Shown: positions 1 to 10,044, counted from the stretch's first letter. The stretch: DNA of 64,000 nt from a virus (UHGV-1370141), one strand, 5' to 3'. Notes: a model not told the origin generated them from the letters alone. A program made the numbers and translations.

Positions 1-1
1 A

Positions 2-133
2 TGTTCAGGTTGCTCTAGTTCATGTTCTGGAGGCTGCACGGGGACATGTATAGGCCAATGTACGACTACATGTACAGGTACATGTAGTCGTACCTGTCAT
101 GGTGGCTGTTCACAATCGTGTACGGGAAGATAA
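2..133 (+). CDS. Cys-rich SCIFF/ranthipeptide-like precursor peptide, C-terminal fragment (5' end outside window)
   Basis: Frame 2 translates to ...CSGCSSSCSGGCTGTCIGQCTTTCTGTCSRTCHGGCSQSCTGR with stop at 131-133; 11 Cys, mostly CX3C spacing; lies just upstream of a second Cys-rich peptide and two radical SAM genes. Confidence 0.45.
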   Translation, partial: CSGCSSSCSGGCTGTCIGQCTTTCTGTCSRTCHGGCSQSCTGR

Positions 134-136
134 GAA

Positions 137-346
137 ATGATAAGTCTTAAAAACATACGCGACAGATTAGTAACGGCAGAAGGGTACATTACCACAGCAG
201 GAGCAAACAACTATATTGCAAACCAAGGTACAGTGTCATCTACTAATAACCTTTCTGGTTTACCGTTGAGTCACTATAACTGTAACGGTGGGTGTAGCTG
301 GTCCTGTAGCGGTAGTTGTAGCCGTGGTGCTGGCGGTAGTAAGTAG
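137..346 (+). CDS. Cys-rich precursor-like peptide (leader plus CX3C-repeat core)
   Basis: 69-aa ORF; the C-terminal core NCNGGCSWSCSGSCSRGAGGSK has four Cys at CX3C spacing after a ~47-aa Cys-free leader; same strand and immediately upstream of the radical SAM pair. Confidence 0.5.
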   Translation: MISLKNIRDRLVTAEGYITTAGANNYIANQGTVSSTNNLSGLPLSHYNCNGGCSWSCSGSCSRGAGGSK

Positions 347-369
347 TAGAAACGTGTCAGAGGTATTCA

Positions 370-1257
370 ATGAAAAACGATTTACATTTAGCATATAACA
401 CTACATTTAACCATCCTTTGCAAATCTCTTCTCCAGATTCTGTACGTTATCATTTAAGTGATGACGTTCGTTTAATTACCATGCTACCTGGCGAATGGCC
501 GAAATTACGGGGCCGTGATATCGTCAACCGTGATAATATCTCCGTAGAAAATACTTTTACAATTCGTGATCTGCCGGTCGAACGTGTGATTGTTTTTACA
601 GGAGATGATGAACTTTATGGAATGATTGTTGATGGTAAATACTTCTTCAGTGACGGGGTTTTAAATGCTGGTAGCGATTTAGAACTTTTTTTTACACCGT
701 TTGCTGAGCTTGACGCTAAGCCTATGGTTCGCAGATGGTGGAGTCCAGATTACATGGGGGCTTTTCCGTATTACTATACTCTTGTTGGTAAGGATGTTGA
801 AGAGTATTCCGATAGTGAACCATACACCAACATTGAAGGTTATCAGGACCTCGGAATTGCACATTTAGCTGATTTAATGGCTTATAGCTATAAGTTCGAA
901 TGGATTCGTGAACGTTCTGTTTGGAAAGCCATTACTGACGACCATGTTATTACGAAACGTATTCGTAAACCATGGATGCAACATCTTGTTCAAATACGAT
1001 TTGGCCAAAGTCCAGTAACCGAGGCTGATATTTCTAAACTTGTTAGTTTTTTATTGTCTAAGGTTGAATTGACTGATGAAGAAGCCGAAGCTGTTAAGCC
1101 GATGCTTGATCGTATTGTGACCTTAGAAGACCTCAAAAGAATGAATAGTCGTTATAACGATCTTAATCGGTTGCTAGAGGCGTATAATTCGACAAAGGTT
1201 TTAAAACCTGGAGTCAATTTCGACGAAGATCCGTTGTTCGCTATCGACTATAATTAA
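370..1257 (+). CDS. hypothetical protein, accessory gene of the radical SAM cluster
   Basis: 295-aa ORF with a GAGG RBS before the ATG; sits between the peptides and the radical SAM genes; no recognisable motif. Confidence 0.55.
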   Translation: MKNDLHLAYNTTFNHPLQISSPDSVRYHLSDDVRLITMLPGEWPKLRGRDIVNRDNISVENTFTIRDLPVERVIVFTGDDELYGMIVDGKYFFSDGVLNAGSDLELFFTPFAELDAKPMVRRWWSPDYMGAFPYYYTLVGKDVEEYSDSEPYTNIEGYQDLGIAHLADLMAYSYKFEWIRERSVWKAITDDHVITKRIRKPWMQHLVQIRFGQSPVTEADISKLVSFLLSKVELTDEEAEAVKPMLDRIVTLEDLKRMNSRYNDLNRLLEAYNSTKVLKPGVNFDEDPLFAIDYN

Positions 1258-1264
1258 ATAATTA

Positions 1265-2203
1265 ATGGAGTCACCTGCAATGGCGACCAATGCGGAACCA
1301 AAATTATCAGATCAGTTATTTGACAATCCAACAATATTAGCCGTTATTACTACATCCAAATGTAATCTGGACTGTAGTTTCTGCGGCGGAGCCTATTACA
1401 TGAATCGTGAAGATTCTTCTCGAGAGTTTCAACGTGACCGAATTATGGAGGCGTTAGAAGCTAACCCAACAATCACCGAGATTCAATGGACGGGTGGTGA
1501 GCCTTTGTTAGCCACTCGTAAAATTGAGGCGTTTGTTGACGAGTTAAAAGTAATTCGTCCAGAGCTCAAACATCAGTTATATACCAACGGTTTAAAGATG
1601 CGTAAAACGCATCTCCCGTTGTTAAAACAATTTGATAATGTGTATGTTAGCATCGACGGGTTTGAGTTGTCTGAACGCCCTTTTAAGCGTTTTATTAACG
1701 ATGGTTGCTACGAAGCTTTAGAAGTAATGCATGAGCTTGAAAATGTTCATACATGGGCCGTTTTAACTCGAGAACAGTTGGGTAACAAACGGTGGCATGA
1801 AGACATTATTGAGCTTCATAATGCGATCTATCACTACGGTTATCGTACCATGACGTTGCTGTTAGACGCGAATATGCCAAAACCGTTATCTCCCGATCAC
1901 GTTATGAACTTTATTTACGGGTATTTTAGAATTCAGGAAAATATAGAAAGACTGAATGTTTCCAACTCGAAAAGGTGTGACTATGTCGTAAGCAAAGTTT
2001 TTGATGGTGGGTGTAACGTATGCAGCAATAGTTTATGGTTAAGAGCAGATGGAACCGAATATCAGTTGCAAAATGCCCCGAGATTATTAGAATCGGGATG
2101 TAACCAATTAGCTTGTTCCATCGGGTTAGAAGCCTACGAGTATATTCGACGAGTGGTTATGGCCAACCGTAATAGTGGAGTATTAAATGAACCAAGAAAA
2201 TAA
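1265..2203 (+). CDS. radical SAM enzyme
   Basis: CNLDCSFC (CX3CX2C) motif near the N-terminus and a GGEPLL glycine-rich SAM-binding motif; its end overlaps the start of the next radical SAM gene. Confidence 0.8.
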   Translation: MESPAMATNAEPKLSDQLFDNPTILAVITTSKCNLDCSFCGGAYYMNREDSSREFQRDRIMEALEANPTITEIQWTGGEPLLATRKIEAFVDELKVIRPELKHQLYTNGLKMRKTHLPLLKQFDNVYVSIDGFELSERPFKRFINDGCYEALEVMHELENVHTWAVLTREQLGNKRWHEDIIELHNAIYHYGYRTMTLLLDANMPKPLSPDHVMNFIYGYFRIQENIERLNVSNSKRCDYVVSKVFDGGCNVCSNSLWLRADGTEYQLQNAPRLLESGCNQLACSIGLEAYEYIRRVVMANRNSGVLNEPRK

Positions 2204-3509
2204 TTACCCGAAACAGTTGACTTACCAGATTGTTACAAACTTGTCGTGTAATTTGGACTGTGAGTATTGTTACGAGCGTAAATATCCCCGCAATAACAAA
2301 GCAGCAGATATTGTAGATTTTCTTCATGCCTGTTTCGAGCGTGATAAAGATTTACCAAACGTAGAAGTCGTCATTGACATTATCGGCGGCGAGCCGTTTA
2401 TGCAGCCTAAGCTTCTAATGGCCGCTTTCGAAACAGCCGAGCAGTTGTGTGAAGAACATAAACGCCCGTTTATGTTTAGTATCTCTACTAATGGGACATT
2501 ATTAGATAGGCCGTTGAACAGGGAAATTATTGAACGTTGGAAGGACAGACTTTCTATCGGGGTGTCTATTGATGGGTTACCTGAGTCGCACGATAAGTAC
2601 CGTATTTTTACAACGAGTCGCGAAGGTTCTTACGAGGCCGCTGTACGTGGTTACAATTATCTAAAAGAAGTAGGTATCGCGGAGCTTGGGGTTAAAGCGA
2701 CATTTACTTTGGAAACGCTCCCACATTATGCGGCGGGTATGAAATCCCTAATCGATTTGGCTGGAGGTGGAACCATTTCTGGTAACGTAACCTTCGAAGA
2801 CATTATGCCACGGAGTATGGCTACGTCGATAGCGCTACAAATGATGGATGTAGTCGATTATTGGGTTGAAAAGGGTTTACACACCAACCCACGTAATACC
2901 CTATCACATATCATCCCGGAAGGGTTAGATTTCGACACTATCTGGGAACCGAACTGGCGGGATCAGCTACTTTACAACGATACTGTACGTTTAAACCCGG
3001 AACGCTTGCGTCCGTTCTGCGGGACATTAACTCACATGACTTGTTTAGGGTTTGACAGGAAGATTTTCGGTTGTAACCGTTTCATGTCGACTGTAACGTC
3101 ACGTTCTGCGGTATTTGAGTTAGTCGGTCGTGAGTTTGTTAGCTTAGACGGTGGGAAACTGCTGGAAGAGATTCAGACGCAATACACCAACTATCCTGAG
3201 ACGTGCTTAGGTTGTCCGATGAAACACGCTTGTGGTAGCTGTGCAGCAGCTTCCTACGAGAATGGGGAAGGGACGTTAGAAGACCGTAAAGCGTATCACG
3301 CTGAACGTCGTCAATGTGGTTGGACAACTGCAAAATTAATGGTCGCGGAATACTGGAAACAGAAGATGGGTACAACATCTGTGAAGGATTTCCACGATAA
3401 TAGCATGTGTTACTGCCCTCGCTGTGTACGTGAACGTGCCCAAAAAGAAAAACAATTGAGAGAAGCCAAAGATGAAGCCAATTCTGATCCACAATATTAC
3501 GAAGCGTAA
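2187..3509 (+). CDS. radical SAM enzyme with SPASM/twitch-like C-terminal Cys cluster (peptide-maturase-like)
   Basis: CNLDCEYC (CX3CX2C) and GGEPFM motifs; the C-terminal region holds extra Cys clusters (CLGCPMKHACGSC, CYCPRC) as in SPASM-domain maturases. Confidence 0.8.
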   Translation: MNQENNYPKQLTYQIVTNLSCNLDCEYCYERKYPRNNKAADIVDFLHACFERDKDLPNVEVVIDIIGGEPFMQPKLLMAAFETAEQLCEEHKRPFMFSISTNGTLLDRPLNREIIERWKDRLSIGVSIDGLPESHDKYRIFTTSREGSYEAAVRGYNYLKEVGIAELGVKATFTLETLPHYAAGMKSLIDLAGGGTISGNVTFEDIMPRSMATSIALQMMDVVDYWVEKGLHTNPRNTLSHIIPEGLDFDTIWEPNWRDQLLYNDTVRLNPERLRPFCGTLTHMTCLGFDRKIFGCNRFMSTVTSRSAVFELVGREFVSLDGGKLLEEIQTQYTNYPETCLGCPMKHACGSCAAASYENGEGTLEDRKAYHAERRQCGWTTAKLMVAEYWKQKMGTTSVKDFHDNSMCYCPRCVRERAQKEKQLREAKDEANSDPQYYEA

Positions 3510-4044
3510 ATTCCGTTTTCTGGAAAAGTTTTTAGAAACTACGAAACTGTTTGGCTGTTATGTGCAGATTAACGGCGAAGATTTCAATGACGATGTTAAG
3601 CGTTTATTAATTCGTCACGGAATCACCGTTGTTATCCCGATGTATTGTACAGAACTTACCGAACTTTCTGTGGCCGAAATCGAGAAACAAAATCCAGGCT
3701 TTGAACAGCGCGTGCTGGAATTTCCTAAACATAAAATCGTTCTTTTACGCCGCGCTTTGCAAGAGCCGAGCGTTGAATCTGTTGCTGCTCTAGGTTTATC
3801 GTTTCCTGGTGTGACAATTTATGTCACACGAAACCCAGAGTCCACCATCGATGGTTTTTACGATGAAAGGGAAACTTTTCATAGTTTAGTTTATCCCGAG
3901 CTTACAGAAGACGAACGTCAAGGACTACATATTGACTGGGACTCAAATTTTGATAGTAAGTTTCGTAAAATCGATTTTGATCTTCTGATCGAGCTGGGTT
4001 TAATTAAAGGAGAAGACGAATGCCTGCTCTTGACAAAAGCTTAA
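3472..4044 (+). CDS. hypothetical protein
   Basis: 190-aa ORF overlapping the end of the SPASM gene, same strand; no motif recognised. Confidence 0.5.
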   Translation: MKPILIHNITKRKFRFLEKFLETTKLFGCYVQINGEDFNDDVKRLLIRHGITVVIPMYCTELTELSVAEIEKQNPGFEQRVLEFPKHKIVLLRRALQEPSVESVAALGLSFPGVTIYVTRNPESTIDGFYDERETFHSLVYPELTEDERQGLHIDWDSNFDSKFRKIDFDLLIELGLIKGEDECLLLTKA

Positions 4045-4694
4045 TAAACGAAGATATTCGCGCCAGATTTTTTAGCCGACTTTCCCCAATTGATCGCCAC
4101 GGAAACTTTTTGGGTCATATAGGTACTGAAGATCGCGGCAGAACGGGTTTTTGTACAATGCTTCATTACAAACTACTCGATGGCATGTCCGATGAAGACG
4201 CGTTAGATCAAATGCGTAGTTACAATATGTCAGATATTGAAGCAAATTTCACCCTGAAAAAAGCAAAAGAGTTCATTTCAGATGTATTGGAGATAGATCT
4301 GGATGAAATTCGAAGTAACGTTCGTTCAACAGCACGATATATTTATTTAGATGTTCAAAAGATCATGAAGGCGTTGGAGTCGCGTTACGAAGCAGAACGT
4401 TACGAACCAATTCAGCTGAATGATCGTCATTTTCAGGCTGATGCAATCTCCCGACAAATGTTAGGGCAATATATCCAATCTGAAACTGCGCCAGAATATT
4501 GGTTGGATACCGCCAATACGCGTTTAGAACCCTTTACATTAGAAGAATGTAAGGAACTATTGTCCGAGATCGTAAAACGTGATCAGAAACTGCATGGACA
4601 AATGACCGCGCAGAAAAAAGAGCTTCGCCTCTTAGCTGAACAGCGTGACTACGACACTATCCGTGCACTTGCACTGGAAATGGGATTAGAATAA
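4020..4694 (+). CDS. hypothetical protein
   Basis: 224-aa ORF, last gene of the plus-strand cluster, followed by a strong terminator hairpin. Confidence 0.5.
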   Translation: MPALDKSLINEDIRARFFSRLSPIDRHGNFLGHIGTEDRGRTGFCTMLHYKLLDGMSDEDALDQMRSYNMSDIEANFTLKKAKEFISDVLEIDLDEIRSNVRSTARYIYLDVQKIMKALESRYEAERYEPIQLNDRHFQADAISRQMLGQYIQSETAPEYWLDTANTRLEPFTLEECKELLSEIVKRDQKLHGQMTAQKKELRLLAEQRDYDTIRALALEMGLE

Positions 4695-4698
4695 AAAA

Positions 4699-4742
4699 TA
4701 CCTACCTCCGTAAAGGAGGTAGGTAAACTTATTATTTTTTTG
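4699..4742. terminator. bidirectional rho-independent terminator
   Basis: Inverted repeat tacctacctcc-gtaaa-ggaggtaggta flanked by an A-run upstream and a T-run downstream, between convergent genes ending at 4694 (+) and 4764 (-). Confidence 0.7.
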
Positions 4743-4763: not shown

Positions 4764-5294
4764 TTAAGCAGTAAAACCGTCCAATTCACCGTTGGTGGTG
4801 GCCAGGTCAATACGATTATCGACAACCTTCGGTGTAATTACGAAAGTTGCCATTACACCCGGTTTATAACGGAGGTTCTGTTCAGTAACGGTGCACGTCA
4901 CGGTACGCAGAGTGACGTTTTCATGTTCGTCTTTCTGGTCTTCGGTGCTGTACACAACGTCACCTGGCGCGATAGCGTCGTCAGGTTTTACTTTGTTGAT
5001 GTAATATTGTAACCAAGCGCGGAGTTCGTTTTCTTGAACCCAGCGAGACAGATCATCAGTTAGTTCAATCCGTCCTACAACACCTGGCTCCAGACGATCG
5101 TAATGCAGTTCGATTGCACCTTTGAAATTCTCAGAACCTGGTAGTGCAGTCATGGTAACTTTGGTATTCTTACTTTCGCCTTCCAGCGCAGTAGGGAGAC
5201 CAAAGGACACTTCTTTATCAGTAATCTGATGTGGTAGCTCAGTGTTAGCAGCATTATAAAGCGCGACCAACATCATCTGGTTAGTAGCGGCCAT
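4764..5294 (-). CDS. hypothetical protein, probably abundant virion protein
   Basis: 176-aa ORF with codon usage that looks strongly biased; C-terminus ...GELDGFTA is shared with the upstream paralog. Confidence 0.55.
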   Translation of the reverse strand: MAATNQMMLVALYNAANTELPHQITDKEVSFGLPTALEGESKNTKVTMTALPGSENFKGAIELHYDRLEPGVVGRIELTDDLSRWVQENELRAWLQYYINKVKPDDAIAPGDVVYSTEDQKDEHENVTLRTVTCTVTEQNLRYKPGVMATFVITPKVVDNRIDLATTNGELDGFTA

Positions 5295-5365: not shown

Positions 5366-5938
5366 TTAGCCACCGACACCCGGCGCAGTGAAGCCATCAA
5401 GTTCACCTTCCAGACCGCCCAGTGCTACCTTCTCAGGAGCTGGGTTGGAATAAGTGAAAGTAGCAATAGTACCCGCCAGGAATTTAATGTGGCCATCGTT
5501 TACTTTGACAGTGTAAACTTTAGCACCGCTGTCGCCTTCGGATTTAACGATAGTGAGTTCGCTCTCTGCAAACGCGTCATCGACATAACCTTTAGTAACC
5601 ATTTCTTTGTTCAGTTTGGTTACAATGGCAGAGTTTTCCAGATCGAGACTACCAGCTTGTTCGTAAGCTTTAGCACCGATCAGGTCTTGGGATGCCAGAC
5701 GGATATAATGGAATTCTTTCTCGCCTTTGAAGTTCTGGCTTTCTGCCTTGGCGGTCAGTGTAATTTTGGTGTTACGACCAGCGTCTCCGCTGTGCGCTTC
5801 GACAGCACCAAAATCGACATCACCAACCGTCAGATTAGAAGCGGTTGCAGAGTTTTTAGCAATTACAGCTTCGATGAGCTGTTGTTTGAAGGCTTTAGCC
5901 ATCTTTTTTACCTCGTAAGTGGTAGGGGTGGATTGCAT
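5366..5938 (-). CDS. hypothetical protein, paralog of 4764..5294
   Basis: 190-aa ORF ending ...LEGELDGFTAPGVGG; similar central NFKG..HY.RL block; biased codons. Confidence 0.55.
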   Translation of the reverse strand: MQSTPTTYEVKKMAKAFKQQLIEAVIAKNSATASNLTVGDVDFGAVEAHSGDAGRNTKITLTAKAESQNFKGEKEFHYIRLASQDLIGAKAYEQAGSLDLENSAIVTKLNKEMVTKGYVDDAFAESELTIVKSEGDSGAKVYTVKVNDGHIKFLAGTIATFTYSNPAPEKVALGGLEGELDGFTAPGVGG

Positions 5939-6640: not shown

Positions 6641-7156
6641 TTAGATTTTAACTAAGGCGCTCCAATCGATAGGGCTTTGTTTCACGACTTTCGCAGTACC
6701 GCGATTCGGTGACCAGAACGTGATATTCGGTTGGTTACGAACGTCGATATGCAACCAACTGATGTCGCATTCGATAAAGTGAATAAACGGAAACTCATCA
6801 GGATTAGCGGCAATATAATCGTGGACTTGTTTTACCGTTGAATCTAACAGTGTCGCGTCGAACGCATTACCGAACTTGTGCTGACTCCCTGAATCGGAAT
6901 AGAGTTGTAACGCACGTTGTTTATAGTTACCGCCCTTAGGCTTTTCTTGATTGATGAAAAAGTCTAAGGTTCTTAGGCCACGCTGTTGCGCAGCAGACGA
7001 GTTAATCACCATTCTGCCGAAACGGTTACGAATCTGTTGCAGCGAAATCATTAACAACGGGTTCATAAACCGAATTGCAGAATCACCGTATTTGGCGATG
7101 TACGATTGCGGTACTAACTCTTTGAGTTTAAAGTTACTCGGATTTGGATGAAACAT
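6641..7156 (-). CDS. peptidase M15 family (VanY-like D,D- or L,D-peptidase) cell-wall hydrolase
   Basis: SQHKFGNAFD matches the SxHxxGxAxD zinc-binding signature of M15 peptidases; 171 aa. Confidence 0.6.
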   Translation of the reverse strand: MFHPNPSNFKLKELVPQSYIAKYGDSAIRFMNPLLMISLQQIRNRFGRMVINSSAAQQRGLRTLDFFINQEKPKGGNYKQRALQLYSDSGSQHKFGNAFDATLLDSTVKQVHDYIAANPDEFPFIHFIECDISWLHIDVRNQPNITFWSPNRGTAKVVKQSPIDWSALVKI

Positions 7157-7808
7157 CTTCCCTCCCAGACAGAAAAGCCCGTTTGATGTTCAGGTATTTG
7201 ACATTAACGGGACAACCTGTGGTGATATCAACACGTTCGTGGTCAGGAATAGCAGGCTCCTTAAACTCACGAACGAACAAATAGTTTCGATTGTAATCTA
7301 ACGTACGGTAATCGTTAGTGGTATAAGACGGCTTCGCGTTAGGGTCTACGTAAGCATCCCAACCGAACCCCGCCACGGCTTTATAAAACGTTTGGCAGAT
7401 ATACGGTGAGATTTCCAACGACTGCATAATACGCAGGAATGTTAAGTCAGAGAACTCTTTATCGATAATACGCGAAACGTTACCACCCGGTGTCATGGGA
7501 TAGCTACGCTCCGTGTTACATTTTTGATAGAGTAAGTCGTGAATGCAGGCCGCAGGTGCCCACGGTCCGTCAGGATGGAAAATTCCCTGGAGGTGTTCAG
7601 GAATTGACGCTAAATCGGTAACGAACCCTTTCGGTGCTGTTAACCACAGTTGCGTGTCAGGCAATACACCCGTTAAATAAACCGCACGGTCTAAGTGTAC
7701 GTGGTCGTGATAAATCTCACGTAACGTAAACGGATAATGGTAATCCTCCGTTAATACAAACCACTTATTGTCTAAACGTTTATATTGAAGCTTCTCCATT
7801 ACCCACAC
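7134..7808 (-). CDS. hypothetical protein (DUF1353-like)
   Basis: 224-aa ORF containing FVTDLASIP...HD..Y, which resembles the DUF1353 signature; the family assignment is from memory. Confidence 0.45.
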   Translation of the reverse strand: MWVMEKLQYKRLDNKWFVLTEDYHYPFTLREIYHDHVHLDRAVYLTGVLPDTQLWLTAPKGFVTDLASIPEHLQGIFHPDGPWAPAACIHDLLYQKCNTERSYPMTPGGNVSRIIDKEFSDLTFLRIMQSLEISPYICQTFYKAVAGFGWDAYVDPNAKPSYTTNDYRTLDYNRNYLFVREFKEPAIPDHERVDITTGCPVNVKYLNIKRAFLSGREDVSSKSE

Positions 7809-7915: not shown

Positions 7916-8506
7916 TCATTTTACTAACCCCGCTTTTACCGCATAATCTGCCATTTCTCTGAAGACGCGGCCGTACCAACCGTAGGTGTATTTCTCGTTT
8001 CTCTTACGTTTTTCGGAGATTTCCGTGTAGTAAGTTACTTGGTGCGAGATTAACGCAAAGATTAAAATGCTCAACCCTTCATCTTTACGATATTTCAGGT
8101 AGGCGTTCAACGCACCCAGTGTCTTAGGACCCATACCGCCGTCGGTGTCAATATCTGCGTAAAGTTTCCCTTCGTTATTTAAAACGTTGAGAATACGTTG
8201 TAACGATTTCACACAGTTAGCACGCCCTGCGTTAATACCAAAATCAAACATCCGGTCTGCGAGTAACGGTGAGATAGCGAAAATCTCATCAAGTTTGAGC
8301 TTCTTCCACCAACCGCGATCGTAAATATCAAACGCTTGTGCACGGGTGAGGTCTTTCATTTTCCCTGTGTAGCCGTATTCGCGTGCAGTAGTTAAAGTTA
8401 CACCGTGACAGGTTTCTCCACCTTTGTCGTCAGGGTCGTTGACGTACCCGCCTTCTAAATCCGTTTTGGATTCAATAATACCTTCTTTAGTCCAACGTTC
8501 AGCCAT
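7916..8506 (-). CDS. GH108-family lysozyme with peptidoglycan-binding domain (endolysin-like)
   Basis: N-terminal EGGYVNDPDDKGGETCHGVT matches the glycoside hydrolase 108 signature; the C-terminal region resembles PG_binding_3. Confidence 0.7.
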   Translation of the reverse strand: MAERWTKEGIIESKTDLEGGYVNDPDDKGGETCHGVTLTTAREYGYTGKMKDLTRAQAFDIYDRGWWKKLKLDEIFAISPLLADRMFDFGINAGRANCVKSLQRILNVLNNEGKLYADIDTDGGMGPKTLGALNAYLKYRKDEGLSILIFALISHQVTYYTEISEKRKRNEKYTYGWYGRVFREMADYAVKAGLVK

Positions 8507-8569: not shown

Positions 8570-9049
8570 TTATTTTTTCTTCTTAGCGCGTGATGGCTTA
8601 GCTGGCGGTGTTTCAACAGCCGGTTTACGTGCAACACGCACTGTAAAACCACCAACCCAGGTCAGACACTCAGGACGGAAGAAAATACCGTGTTCGATTG
8701 CGCTACCGTCCAACGGTAACTCACCAACCTGTTCTACCCATACATCGTCTTCTGTAAGGGTTAGGCTATACTGTTCGTTAATTACGGGCAGTAGGTCAGC
8801 GGTAGTCGTTGCAGACTCCACTAACAGTTTCGGTAATACGTTCAGGAAATACAAACCTGCGTCAATGCGGTTATACTGGAACGTTTGTTCGTTAGTGTAA
8901 CCGAGATTCTTAATTGACGCAACTGTGATTTCGGTATTGTACGTACCGGTGGTTACGACCGGGTCACCCAGCGTGACTTTGGTGGTGTCGAACTCAGCGT
9001 CTGGGTTAGCCTTTTTAATAAGGTCGAAGATAGTTTCTTGATTGGTCAT
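8570..9049 (-). CDS. hypothetical protein
   Basis: 159-aa ORF in the minus-strand block, lysine-rich C-terminus; no motif. Confidence 0.5.
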   Translation of the reverse strand: MTNQETIFDLIKKANPDAEFDTTKVTLGDPVVTTGTYNTEITVASIKNLGYTNEQTFQYNRIDAGLYFLNVLPKLLVESATTTADLLPVINEQYSLTLTEDDVWVEQVGELPLDGSAIEHGIFFRPECLTWVGGFTVRVARKPAVETPPAKPSRAKKKK

Positions 9050-9062
9050 TACTGTAATCCTC

Positions 9063-9911
9063 TTAATCTAAGAATCCCGGTAAGACCGGATTAGTCTGCG
9101 CTAATTCAATCTTCGACTTCGGACGATCGGTGCCGTTAAAGTGGATTAACAGATTACCGGTCAGGTTAGAACACAGCGGGCTGAGCGTCAGCACCAACAC
9201 ACGCGTGAACTTCGTATTTGCGCCTTCGTAACCTGCGGTTGGACCATCGTAAATAATCTTCGCACCATACAGGTTGTTAGCCGCGTTCTTAGGTACACTT
9301 ACCCATTTCTCATCAACGACGTTAGCCAGTTTAGTGGCTAACTCAGCCAGGTCGACGGTGTCGTTGATAGTAATCGGGTCAAGGTAATCTTTTTCTGCGG
9401 TGAAATCAATCGGGTGAGAATAAACCGCAGCGTTACCTTTCTTAGTAGACGGATACTCTACCAGATTCTCTAATTGAGTAACTGGTAACAGTTCAGTCAG
9501 GTCAATAGGATCACGCAGCGTAAGTGTTACTACACCGCACCACTCGTAAGATTTCTCGTTAGCGGTAAGCTGATGGGTTTCACCTTCAACTTTTGCGTCA
9601 ACGATATCCGAGGGTAAAATATTTAGGTTGTATTTTGCGTTAATCGCATTAAGCAAATCCGATGCGGTTACCACACTGTCGTTACCGAACACCAACTCAC
9701 CGGTTAGGTAGTCAGGTAAATTACGACGGTGGTAAGTCACGGTTAAAGTAGTAGACTCATCGCCTTTGAGTTTAGAGGTCAGAACCACCTGGGTATCAAC
9801 CCCAGTACCGGTAGGTTCTCCGATATCAACATCACTGAAAGTCAACGGTGGACTAATATTGTTTTCAGTGTTGATGAGTTTTAGCAGTTTCTGTTTTGAC
9901 GTAAGAGACAT
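9063..9911 (-). CDS. hypothetical protein
   Basis: 282-aa ORF, tightly spaced with the downstream gene; no motif. Confidence 0.5.
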   Translation of the reverse strand: MSLTSKQKLLKLINTENNISPPLTFSDVDIGEPTGTGVDTQVVLTSKLKGDESTTLTVTYHRRNLPDYLTGELVFGNDSVVTASDLLNAINAKYNLNILPSDIVDAKVEGETHQLTANEKSYEWCGVVTLTLRDPIDLTELLPVTQLENLVEYPSTKKGNAAVYSHPIDFTAEKDYLDPITINDTVDLAELATKLANVVDEKWVSVPKNAANNLYGAKIIYDGPTAGYEGANTKFTRVLVLTLSPLCSNLTGNLLIHFNGTDRPKSKIELAQTNPVLPGFLD

Positions 9912-10044
9912 CGCGTTAACTCACAGTAAGTAAAAAGGTTTAAGAGGTCGTTTTACATCCCTCAGCCAGCATAGGAATAGTCGGGTAGGGTGTAAGTAAA
10001 GCGGTGTCAAAATAACAAAAAAGAAAAGGGAAAGAAAATTAATT

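Follow-up and report, generated by a model that had tools for sequence, protein, structure and literature searches.

At one end of a 64,000-nucleotide (nt) stretch of viral DNA (UHGV-1370141; hereafter the window, meaning the whole stretch analyzed), genes for small cysteine-rich proteins lie beside genes for radical S-adenosylmethionine (rSAM) enzymes, which raises the question of what a phage does with such a cassette. The initial annotation took positions 1-4742 for a SCIFF- or ranthipeptide-like locus, in which a ribosomally produced peptide with post-translational modifications (RiPP) would be carried as natural-product or toxin-like cargo. We arrive at a different answer: the cassette is probably a maturation system for tail-fibre tips, whose rSAM enzymes would cross-link the tip proteins, probably via thioethers. 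We favor this reading because the Cys repeat is fused to recognised fibre proteins in other phages, because the cassette keeps a constant place in tail modules of at least four unrelated types (jumbo phiKZ-like, P2-like, GpJ-type and gut-phage myovirus-like contigs), because it co-occurs one-to-one with the full-length form of gp167, a virion protein of phage SPN3US, and because peptidase and export genes are absent from the cassette.

Seven reading frames are tightly packed on the plus strand of 1-4742 and are followed by a hairpin (lengths in amino acids, aa):

2..133, plus strand: 3' end of Cxxx-B, 43 codons and the stop (frame-2 translation; TIGR04114 24.0 bits)
137..346, plus strand: Cxxx-C, 69-aa short paralogue (phrog_6085, E 1.5e-24)
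370..1257, plus strand: 295-aa accessory protein (SPN3US gp165 family, phrog_8030)
1265..2203, plus strand: rSAM1, 312-aa radical SAM enzyme (PF04055 52.8 bits; phrog_1802)
2187..3509, plus strand: rSAM2, 440-aa radical SAM/SPASM enzyme (PF04055 56 bits; TIGR04115 119.8 bits)
3472..4044, plus strand: 190-aa protein of unknown function (SPN3US gp162 family, phrog_7988)
4020..4694, plus strand: 224-aa DUF4376 protein (PF14301 29.7 bits; SPN3US gp161 family, phrog_8169)
4699..4725, both strands: perfect 11-bp-stem hairpin, terminator-like, between convergent genes

All elements listed in the initial annotation were recovered at the positions it had given them. The strong terminator thought to close the operon held only in part: the hairpin at 4699-4725 is perfect, but its T-run lies on the minus-strand side (TTTTTTATTC; the plus-strand tail reads AACTTATTAT), so it fits the terminator pattern better for the convergent minus-strand gene than for the cassette operon. 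The cassette had rightly been expected to continue upstream. We read the upstream genes from IMGVR_UViG_3300045988_078609 (L023, 224,831 bp), which matches the window without a single mismatch over 10,506 nt, and from a near-identical ENA contig (L010). Upstream of base 1, L023 encodes, in order, a gp168-like giant protein, a 401-aa gp167-like protein, the Cys-repeat protein Cxxx-A (130 aa, 21 Cys), an extra rSAM1 paralogue and the rest of Cxxx-B. The phage thus has three paralogous Cys-repeat proteins and three rSAM genes in total. The extra rSAM1 paralogue (L023 3576..4487; 303 aa, 63% identical to rSAM1), which sits between Cxxx-A and Cxxx-B, is missing from SPN3US, Asesino, CR5, Kwan, Phobos and the other relatives examined.

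The two small open reading frames (ORFs) with Cys at a period of four are real, the first being the C-terminal end of a 132-aa gene and the second encoding 69 aa with 4 Cys. Bases 2-133 translate in frame 2 to CSGCSSSCSGGCTGTCIGQCTTTCTGTCSRTCHGGCSQSCTGR and a stop, with 11 Cys in 43 residues (spacing 4 nine times and 3 once), and the final 43 aa of the complete Cxxx-B (132 aa, L023 4549..4947) are identical to this fragment in both L010 and L023. Cxxx-A, Cxxx-B and Cxxx-C each have an N-terminal helix and a conserved junction motif, G...Y-x-C-x-G-x-C-S-W, and Cxxx-A and Cxxx-B contain ~20 units of C-[S/T]-G-[S/G/T]. Cxxx-C, whose C-terminus is CNGGCSWSCSGSCSRGAGGSK (4 Cys, spacing 4), shares the N-terminal helix motif MISLKNIRDRL and, of the Cys region, only the junction motif CNGGCSWSCSGSC; its orthologues occur in all related phages. 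Asp and Glu are absent from the Cys cores in the window. With the substrate model TIGR04114, the Cxxx-B fragment exceeds the cutoff of 20 and Cxxx-C reaches 11.5 bits; a Cxxx-B homologue matches phrog_6085 (E 2e-42). Six-frame translation of the 64-kb window gave one other run of at least 5 closely spaced Cys, and 20 mononucleotide shuffles gave 0-3 such runs, all much shorter than 11 Cys. Profile searches of the PDB with the Cxxx proteins returned chance-level matches only. In Derbicusvirus and Wellingtonvirus (CR5 and Wellington; L022, L024 4963..5172), the short third paralogue retains CxGxCSW (2 Cys) alone, the repeat being absent, which raises the possibility that the junction is a modification or recognition site in its own right.

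One line of evidence linking these repeats to tail fibres comes from distant relatives. Homologues of rSAM2 with 32-40% identity are found in unrelated phages and prophages, always adjoining tail genes. For instance, a P2-like prophage of Campylobacter pinnipediorum has the order baseplate W, baseplate J, Tail_P2_I, a 384-aa fibre, a 250-aa protein, an rSAM enzyme (400 aa), a second rSAM enzyme (284 aa), DUF1353, sheath and tube. The 384-aa fibre carries a PF12571 N-terminal domain (138.8 bits) and has the C-terminus CNGCSGSCSGSCSSGCTACSGCSGSC. In a Deferribacter abyssi prophage and in contig L095, a fibre-like protein with HxHDxRYYTE repeats lies downstream of a GpJ-like protein; its C-terminal part contains LGGQAGSYYR followed by CSDCSWTCSSSC and NADQLGGQAGSYYR followed by CSDCSWTCSSSCTGSC. 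On the 3' side of this fibre-like gene are genes for a protein of 250 to 277 aa and for two or three rSAM enzymes. On a 213-kb viral contig (L026), a 568-aa protein encoded after a baseplate wedge gene ends in NAVTLGGQPPDFYT followed by CGGSCSWSC. An uncalled Cxxx ORF in L094 lies directly 3' of a protein with a T7-tail-fibre N-terminal domain, and L096 has the order 110-aa Cxxx protein, 218 aa, two rSAM genes, 56-aa ORF, DUF4376 protein. A tblastn search of phages with the N-terminus of the Deferribacter fibre gave nothing useful.

The jumbo-phage Cxxx proteins align to the pre-Cys segments of these fibres, with C50, C54 and S55 invariant and G42, G52 and W56 nearly so, and the alignment yields the shared junction motif G...C-x-G-x-C-S-W. 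The 69- and 132-aa proteins of the window have no fibre domain, and what they share with the fibre relatives is this pre-Cys junction motif only. On L026, a gene for a GIY-YIG-type homing endonuclease (9472..9981) lies just 3' of the rSAM pair.

To describe how the enzyme and the repeat travel together, we surveyed 82 loci, of which 79 came from an IMG/VR scan with the rSAM2 alignment and the others were the prophage loci L012-L014. A strict filter detected a same-strand Cxxx-rich ORF near the enzyme in 73 of the 82. Five of the nine misses were inspected, and four of them hold Cys-rich ORFs that the filter had missed (11-54 Cys); the fifth (L028) has only a 3-Cys C-terminal motif. This 279-kb viral contig has a minimal system (L028 5883..9074) that consists of a 97-aa protein ending in GCESCAMGCHGPQ, a 267-aa protein and rSAM enzymes of 383 and 319 aa. 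Three more loci outside the survey each have a Cxxx-rich ORF. The pairing of an rSAM2-type enzyme with a Cxxx repeat is very well supported. The surveyed Cxxx proteins are 100-940 aa long with up to 63 Cys, usually with the repeat after a conserved ~115-aa N-terminal domain; the Cys spacing is 4 in ~80% of the intervals and 3 in most others, and the unit consensus is C-[ST]-G-[SGT]. Profile-profile comparison showed no relationship between the N-terminal regions of the two groups of Cxxx proteins, those of jumbo phages and those of gut phages. Among 53 dereplicated upstream neighbors of Cxxx genes, all the named PHROGs in the top 25 were baseplate wedge, baseplate, tail, tail fibre or structural proteins. 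Genuine TIGR04115 members also occur on viral contigs (L029, 428.9 bits; L052, 471.3 bits), and the L052 locus is flanked by baseplate wedge and tail proteins.

In many of the gut-phage loci, the tail module with the rSAM gene also contains, 4-6 kb 3' of that gene, a reverse transcriptase gene (phrog_1423, E as low as 1e-101; L040 11617..12891, L052 12815..14041, with ORFs of ~406-425 aa in many loci of L032-L087). The finding suggests that a diversity-generating retroelement targets some neighboring tail protein.

Closer relatives show the same association with tail genes. At the DNA level, the phage collection contains a single relative, Erwinia phage pEa_SNUABM_29, and the protein-level counterpart of the cassette is the gp161-gp166 region of SPN3US (83.5% identity for rSAM2 and 66.7% for the 295-aa protein). 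Phage records contain a full-length rSAM2 homologue in 64 cases, the 295-aa protein in 62 and a full-length gp167-like protein in 63; the records with rSAM2 or the 295-aa protein are all of jumbo phages (~224-250 kb) with Salmonella, Erwinia, Escherichia, Cronobacter or Proteus as hosts. The region is syntenic across ~62 jumbo-phage records of five genera (Seoulvirus, Erskinevirus, Machinavirus, Wellingtonvirus and Derbicusvirus), which share one gene order: giant fibre/baseplate protein, 400-aa virion protein, two long and one short Cxxx proteins, 295-aa protein, rSAM1, rSAM2, ~190-aa protein, DUF4376 protein. The cassette always lies directly downstream of the tail/baseplate fibre genes (gp168-like and gp167-like). 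More distant phiKZ-like phages (Goslar, 201phi2-1, PhiPA3, RSF1 and others) have only the N-terminal half of gp167, and no full-length rSAM2 match was found in these more distant phages. As judged by gene content, the cassette behaves as a core gene set rather than as cargo, co-occurring one-to-one with full-length gp167. The published SPN3US proteome places gp167, 168, 169, 170, 171 and 173 in the virion but not in tailless particles, and gp168 is similar to gp131 of phiKZ, which belongs to the baseplate periphery and fibres (PMC5105663).

Which chemistry might the enzymes perform? The motifs of rSAM1 are CNLDCSFC (CX3CX2C), GGEP and three conserved, twitch-like C-terminal Cys; in the alignment of its family C33, C37, C40, C250 and C279 are invariant and C253 nearly so. 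Its homologues adjoin rSAM2 homologues as pairs in prophages. rSAM2 has the cluster motif CNLDCEYC, and C21, C25, C28, C278, C296, C340, C343, C349, C352 and C377 are invariant among 18 homologues down to 30% identity. The seven C-terminal invariant Cys (C278-C377) form what is, by alignment, a SPASM-type pattern. The best NCBIfam family is TIGR04115, "radical SAM peptide maturase, CXXX-repeat target family" (119.8 bits, cutoff 350), and the second best is PapB (NF047865; 113.1 bits, cutoff 340). Peptide-modifying, thioether-type families thus rank at the top, compared with 56 bits for the anaerobic sulfatase maturase model. The sole solved structure that matches rSAM2 by sequence is CteB (PDB 5wgg, E 3.6e-11), a thioether-forming SCIFF maturase. 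Residues 19-178 of rSAM2 align to 105-264 of CteB, and because the alignment begins at CteB residue 105, rSAM2 lacks the N-terminal RiPP recognition element (RRE).

The scores with TIGR04115 and PapB and the nearest structure, CteB, support the proposal in the initial annotation that a Cys-rich substrate is paired with an rSAM/SPASM maturase, and rSAM2 is a probable maturase of the Cxxx repeats. The SCIFF identity of precursors and maturase did not stand: neither peptide in the window matched a SCIFF model in the NCBIfam scan (E up to 1), and rSAM2 scored 55.2 bits with the SCIFF maturase model TIGR03974 (cutoff 425), so SCIFF membership was rejected. Membership of PapB was rejected as well, the score being 113 versus 340 bits and the acidic acceptors of CX3D/E motifs being missing from the window cores. 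By these profile comparisons the locus comes nearest to the CXXX-repeat system, itself uncharacterised, and it does not strictly belong to any curated family.

The other cassette proteins are less easily placed. For the 295-aa protein, neither Pfam nor NCBIfam gave a match, and its family is small, numbering 24 representatives in 1.84 billion proteins. Its AlphaFold2 model (predicted local distance difference test, pLDDT, 92.8) has a beta-rich N-terminal part and a helical C-terminal part, a predicted fold that is not recognisably that of an RRE, a protease or a known fibre chaperone; the protein is possibly a substrate-presenting or assembly factor. The 250-aa protein of Deferribacter is homologous to its C-terminal half (E 4e-10), and profile-profile comparison found no relationship between the jumbo-phage accessory protein and the ~190-aa proteins at the same position in gut phages. 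The 190-aa protein of the window (3472..4044) is syntenic across all related phages. The DUF4376 protein (4020..4694; PF14301 cutoff 25) has weak PHROG matches to tail-fibre and virion proteins. Contig L096, from an unrelated phage, likewise has a DUF4376 protein after its rSAM pair, and BLASTP between the two DUF4376 proteins found no similarity. Pfam, NCBIfam and PHROG scans identified no protease, transporter or exporter family among the cassette proteins, and the hallmarks of a classical RiPP cluster (leader peptidase and/or exporter, RRE) are not found in the cassette.

If the cassette matures fibre tips, rSAM2 would act on the Cys repeats and join the sulfur of each Cys, as a thioether, to a backbone or side-chain carbon close by, and the resulting ladder of small rings would make a rigid, protease-resistant rod. 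rSAM1, with a single twitch-like auxiliary Cys motif, would add a second modification, possibly at the CxGxCSW junction, and the 295-aa accessory protein would replace the missing RRE or serve as a fibre chaperone. The modified Cxxx proteins would then join the distal part of the fibre, built from the gp167-like and gp168-like virion proteins. Thioether formation is most likely, in our analysis, because the nearest families (TIGR04115 and PapB) and the nearest structure (CteB) are Cys-modifying or thioether-type and the seven SPASM Cys are conserved. Phage fibres are trimers and three paralogues are always present, and for these reasons Cxxx-A, Cxxx-B and Cxxx-C may assemble as one heterotrimer. 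We infer all of these elements, namely the action of the enzymes on Cxxx proteins, the thioethers, the division of labor, the incorporation into virions and the heterotrimer.

An alternative is that each Cxxx protein consists of a leader and a core and is the precursor of a diffusible thioether peptide (a toxin, bacteriocin or signal), released at lysis to the benefit of the phage or the host population, the tail-gene neighborhood being incidental. Small ORFs with a conserved N-terminus and a hypervariable Cys-rich core beside an rSAM/SPASM gene are indeed the canonical RiPP layout, a lytic phage needs no exporter, and the Cxxx ORF of L094 has only ~14 residues ahead of its Cys-rich region. 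However, fibre or fibre-like proteins of 258 to 568 aa in other phages carry the same repeat within their own chain, as the C-terminus. The placement in tail modules is consistent across unrelated phage lineages, and the cassette is a clade-wide, syntenic part of the SPN3US-like tail-fibre module that co-occurs with full-length gp167. The family scans of the cassette proteins revealed neither a leader peptidase nor an exporter, and the cores reach 63 Cys over ~250 residues, whereas typical RiPP natural products are far smaller. We consider such a cargo quite unlikely, and this part of the initial annotation was not supported.

Another possibility is that modified Cxxx proteins or tails aid the folding and trimerisation of fibres and are absent or cleaved from the mature particle. 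In P2- and lambda-type phages, genes for fibre assembly chaperones lie directly after the fibre genes, which is the position of the Cxxx genes; DUF1353 "tail assembly chaperone" genes lie nearby, and Cxxx proteins were unseen in the mass spectrometry of SPN3US virions. Against this, radical chemistry on 20-60 Cys would be costly for a transient helper, no protease is present, and mis-annotation accounts for the absence from the mass spectra, so an assembly factor seems unlikely to us. It has also to be considered that the Cys repeats ligate metals or Fe-S clusters, as a metal-binding or redox tail, while the rSAM enzymes modify another target such as gp167 or gp168. The very high Cys density with small residues between the Cys would suit this, and metal sites are known in trimeric fibre tips, such as the metal-stabilised tips of T4 gp12 and gp37; metallothioneins offer another parallel. 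But the enzyme adjoins its Cxxx substrate in nearly all loci, even where the other neighbors differ, and the nearest enzyme families act on Cys-containing peptides, which leaves metal ligation very improbable.

Although we favor maturation of fibre tips, several observations weigh against it. rSAM2 falls short of the TIGR04115 cutoff (119.8 versus 350 bits). An AlphaFold2 model of Cxxx-A alone was uninformative (pLDDT 43), with only an N-terminal helix at 5-19, and a classical RiPP leader is an equally good reading of the N-terminal 50 aa. The C. pinnipediorum fibre has no CSW motif though both rSAM genes are present, so the proposed division of labor between the enzymes is weak. In the literature we found no description of CXXX-repeat chemistry and no biochemically characterised member. 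An amber screen of SPN3US gave 0 mutants in genes 161-166, with 31 mutations in total, far from saturating. Finally, mass spectrometry of SPN3US virions detected no Cxxx, rSAM or gp161-165 protein (PMC5105663). We note that this last point is weak. The absence of the Cxxx proteins is uninterpretable because the mis-annotated genes were missing from the searched database; moreover, the Cxxx cores are near-free of Lys and Arg, and cross-links would block identification.

The mis-annotation affects several public records (L002, NC_027402, 13192..14221, minus strand; L001 6098..7120; L004 3136..4172). With the frames corrected, the Cys-repeat ORFs of SPN3US encode 130, 134 and 68 aa (NC_027402, ~143,191-144,220, minus strand). 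For instance, SPN3US_0166 is a wrong-frame ORF over the true 134-aa gene, and the 130-aa gene of SPN3US is unannotated. In the records of pEa_SNUABM_29, CR5 and Phobos, opposite-strand ORFs are annotated in place of the Cys-repeat genes. The true frame is backed by protein conservation across genera and by phrog_6085 (E down to 2e-42).

Whether these loci represent a widespread, undescribed class of virion proteins, namely tail-fibre tips made of rSAM/SPASM-cross-linked Cys-x-x-x repeats, probably as poly-thioether ladders, is in our judgment evenly balanced. If so, the tip in SPN3US-like jumbo phages would be made of three paralogous chains, and the orphan "CXXX-repeat RiPP" family (TIGR04114/TIGR04115) would consist mostly of phage-tail components. 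An orphan rSAM "RiPP" family that is more than 10 years old and has no known product would gain a biological role, and such genome-mining matches in prophages should then not be counted as natural-product clusters. RiPP-type enzymology would then serve structural host-recognition organelles, with a new fibre-tip architecture that bears on host range and phage engineering. We know of no precedent for enzyme-installed radical cross-links in a virion structural protein; known covalent reinforcement of virions, such as the chainmail of the HK97 capsid, is autocatalytic. Because SPN3US is a genetic and proteomic model phage, the reading is directly testable.

Part of this was already known: SPN3US-type records have carried rSAM gene annotations for years, and NCBIfam already contains the CXXX-repeat family. 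In the literature covered (most subscription journals lay outside), no paper linked the CXXX-repeat family or any rSAM enzyme to tail fibres, and a comparative review of jumbo phages contained no description of the Cxxx/rSAM cassette.

Downstream of the cassette, the window encodes on its minus strand four paralogous PF25613 (DUF7941) genes (4764..5294, 5366..5938, 8570..9049 and 9063..9911), one of which is, judged by syntenic position, the counterpart of SPN3US gp160. SPN3US gp160 is abundant in virions, tailless particles included (PMC5105663, Table S4). An uncharacterised 171-aa gene (6641..7156, minus strand), a DUF1353 gene (7134..7808, minus strand) and a GH108 endolysin gene (7916..8506) also lie there. 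Orthologues of the DUF1353 gene in RefSeq relatives are annotated "tail assembly chaperone", and in C. pinnipediorum a DUF1353 gene (L013 8068..8433) follows the rSAM pair.

Among known systems, the cassette is most readily compared with the CXXX-repeat system (TIGR04115, with substrates TIGR04114, TIGR04117 and TIGR04118), a family itself defined by comparative genomics only. TIGR04115 is the top family of rSAM2, the substrate is of the Cys-x-x-x type with Cxxx-B passing TIGR04114, enzyme and substrate genes are adjacent and co-oriented, and true members on viral contigs occupy the same kind of tail module. It differs in that rSAM2 belongs to a divergent sister clade (120-157 bits for the window, L026, L012 and L013), which, unlike TIGR04115, has a second rSAM enzyme, a 250- to 295-aa accessory protein and the CxGxCSW junction. 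With PapB/freyrasin and CteB/SCIFF, the cassette shares an rSAM core with a seven-Cys SPASM region and Cys-rich substrates. In contrast to both, rSAM2 has no N-terminal RRE and fails both curated cutoffs, and its Cxxx substrates, which have a connection to fibre proteins, measure 69-132 aa in this phage and as much as 940 aa in other loci; unlike in PapB, the window cores lack the Asp/Glu acceptors of CX3D motifs. Phage-borne RiPP cargo is exemplified by sublancin on the SPbeta prophage, where a peptide-modifying system likewise resides on a phage genome. Such loci are accessory, are accompanied by genes for immunity and export and have no relation to virion modules, whereas the cassette is conserved clade-wide and embedded in a tail module. 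Fibre assembly helpers encoded after fibre genes include the P2 G/Tfa-type chaperones, T4 gp38 and gp57A and C-terminal intramolecular chaperone domains. The cassette resembles them in lying directly downstream of a fibre gene and in its presumed role, a functional distal fibre. While those helpers are non-enzymatic chaperones or self-cleaving domains, the cassette has radical SAM enzymes, which implies covalent modification.

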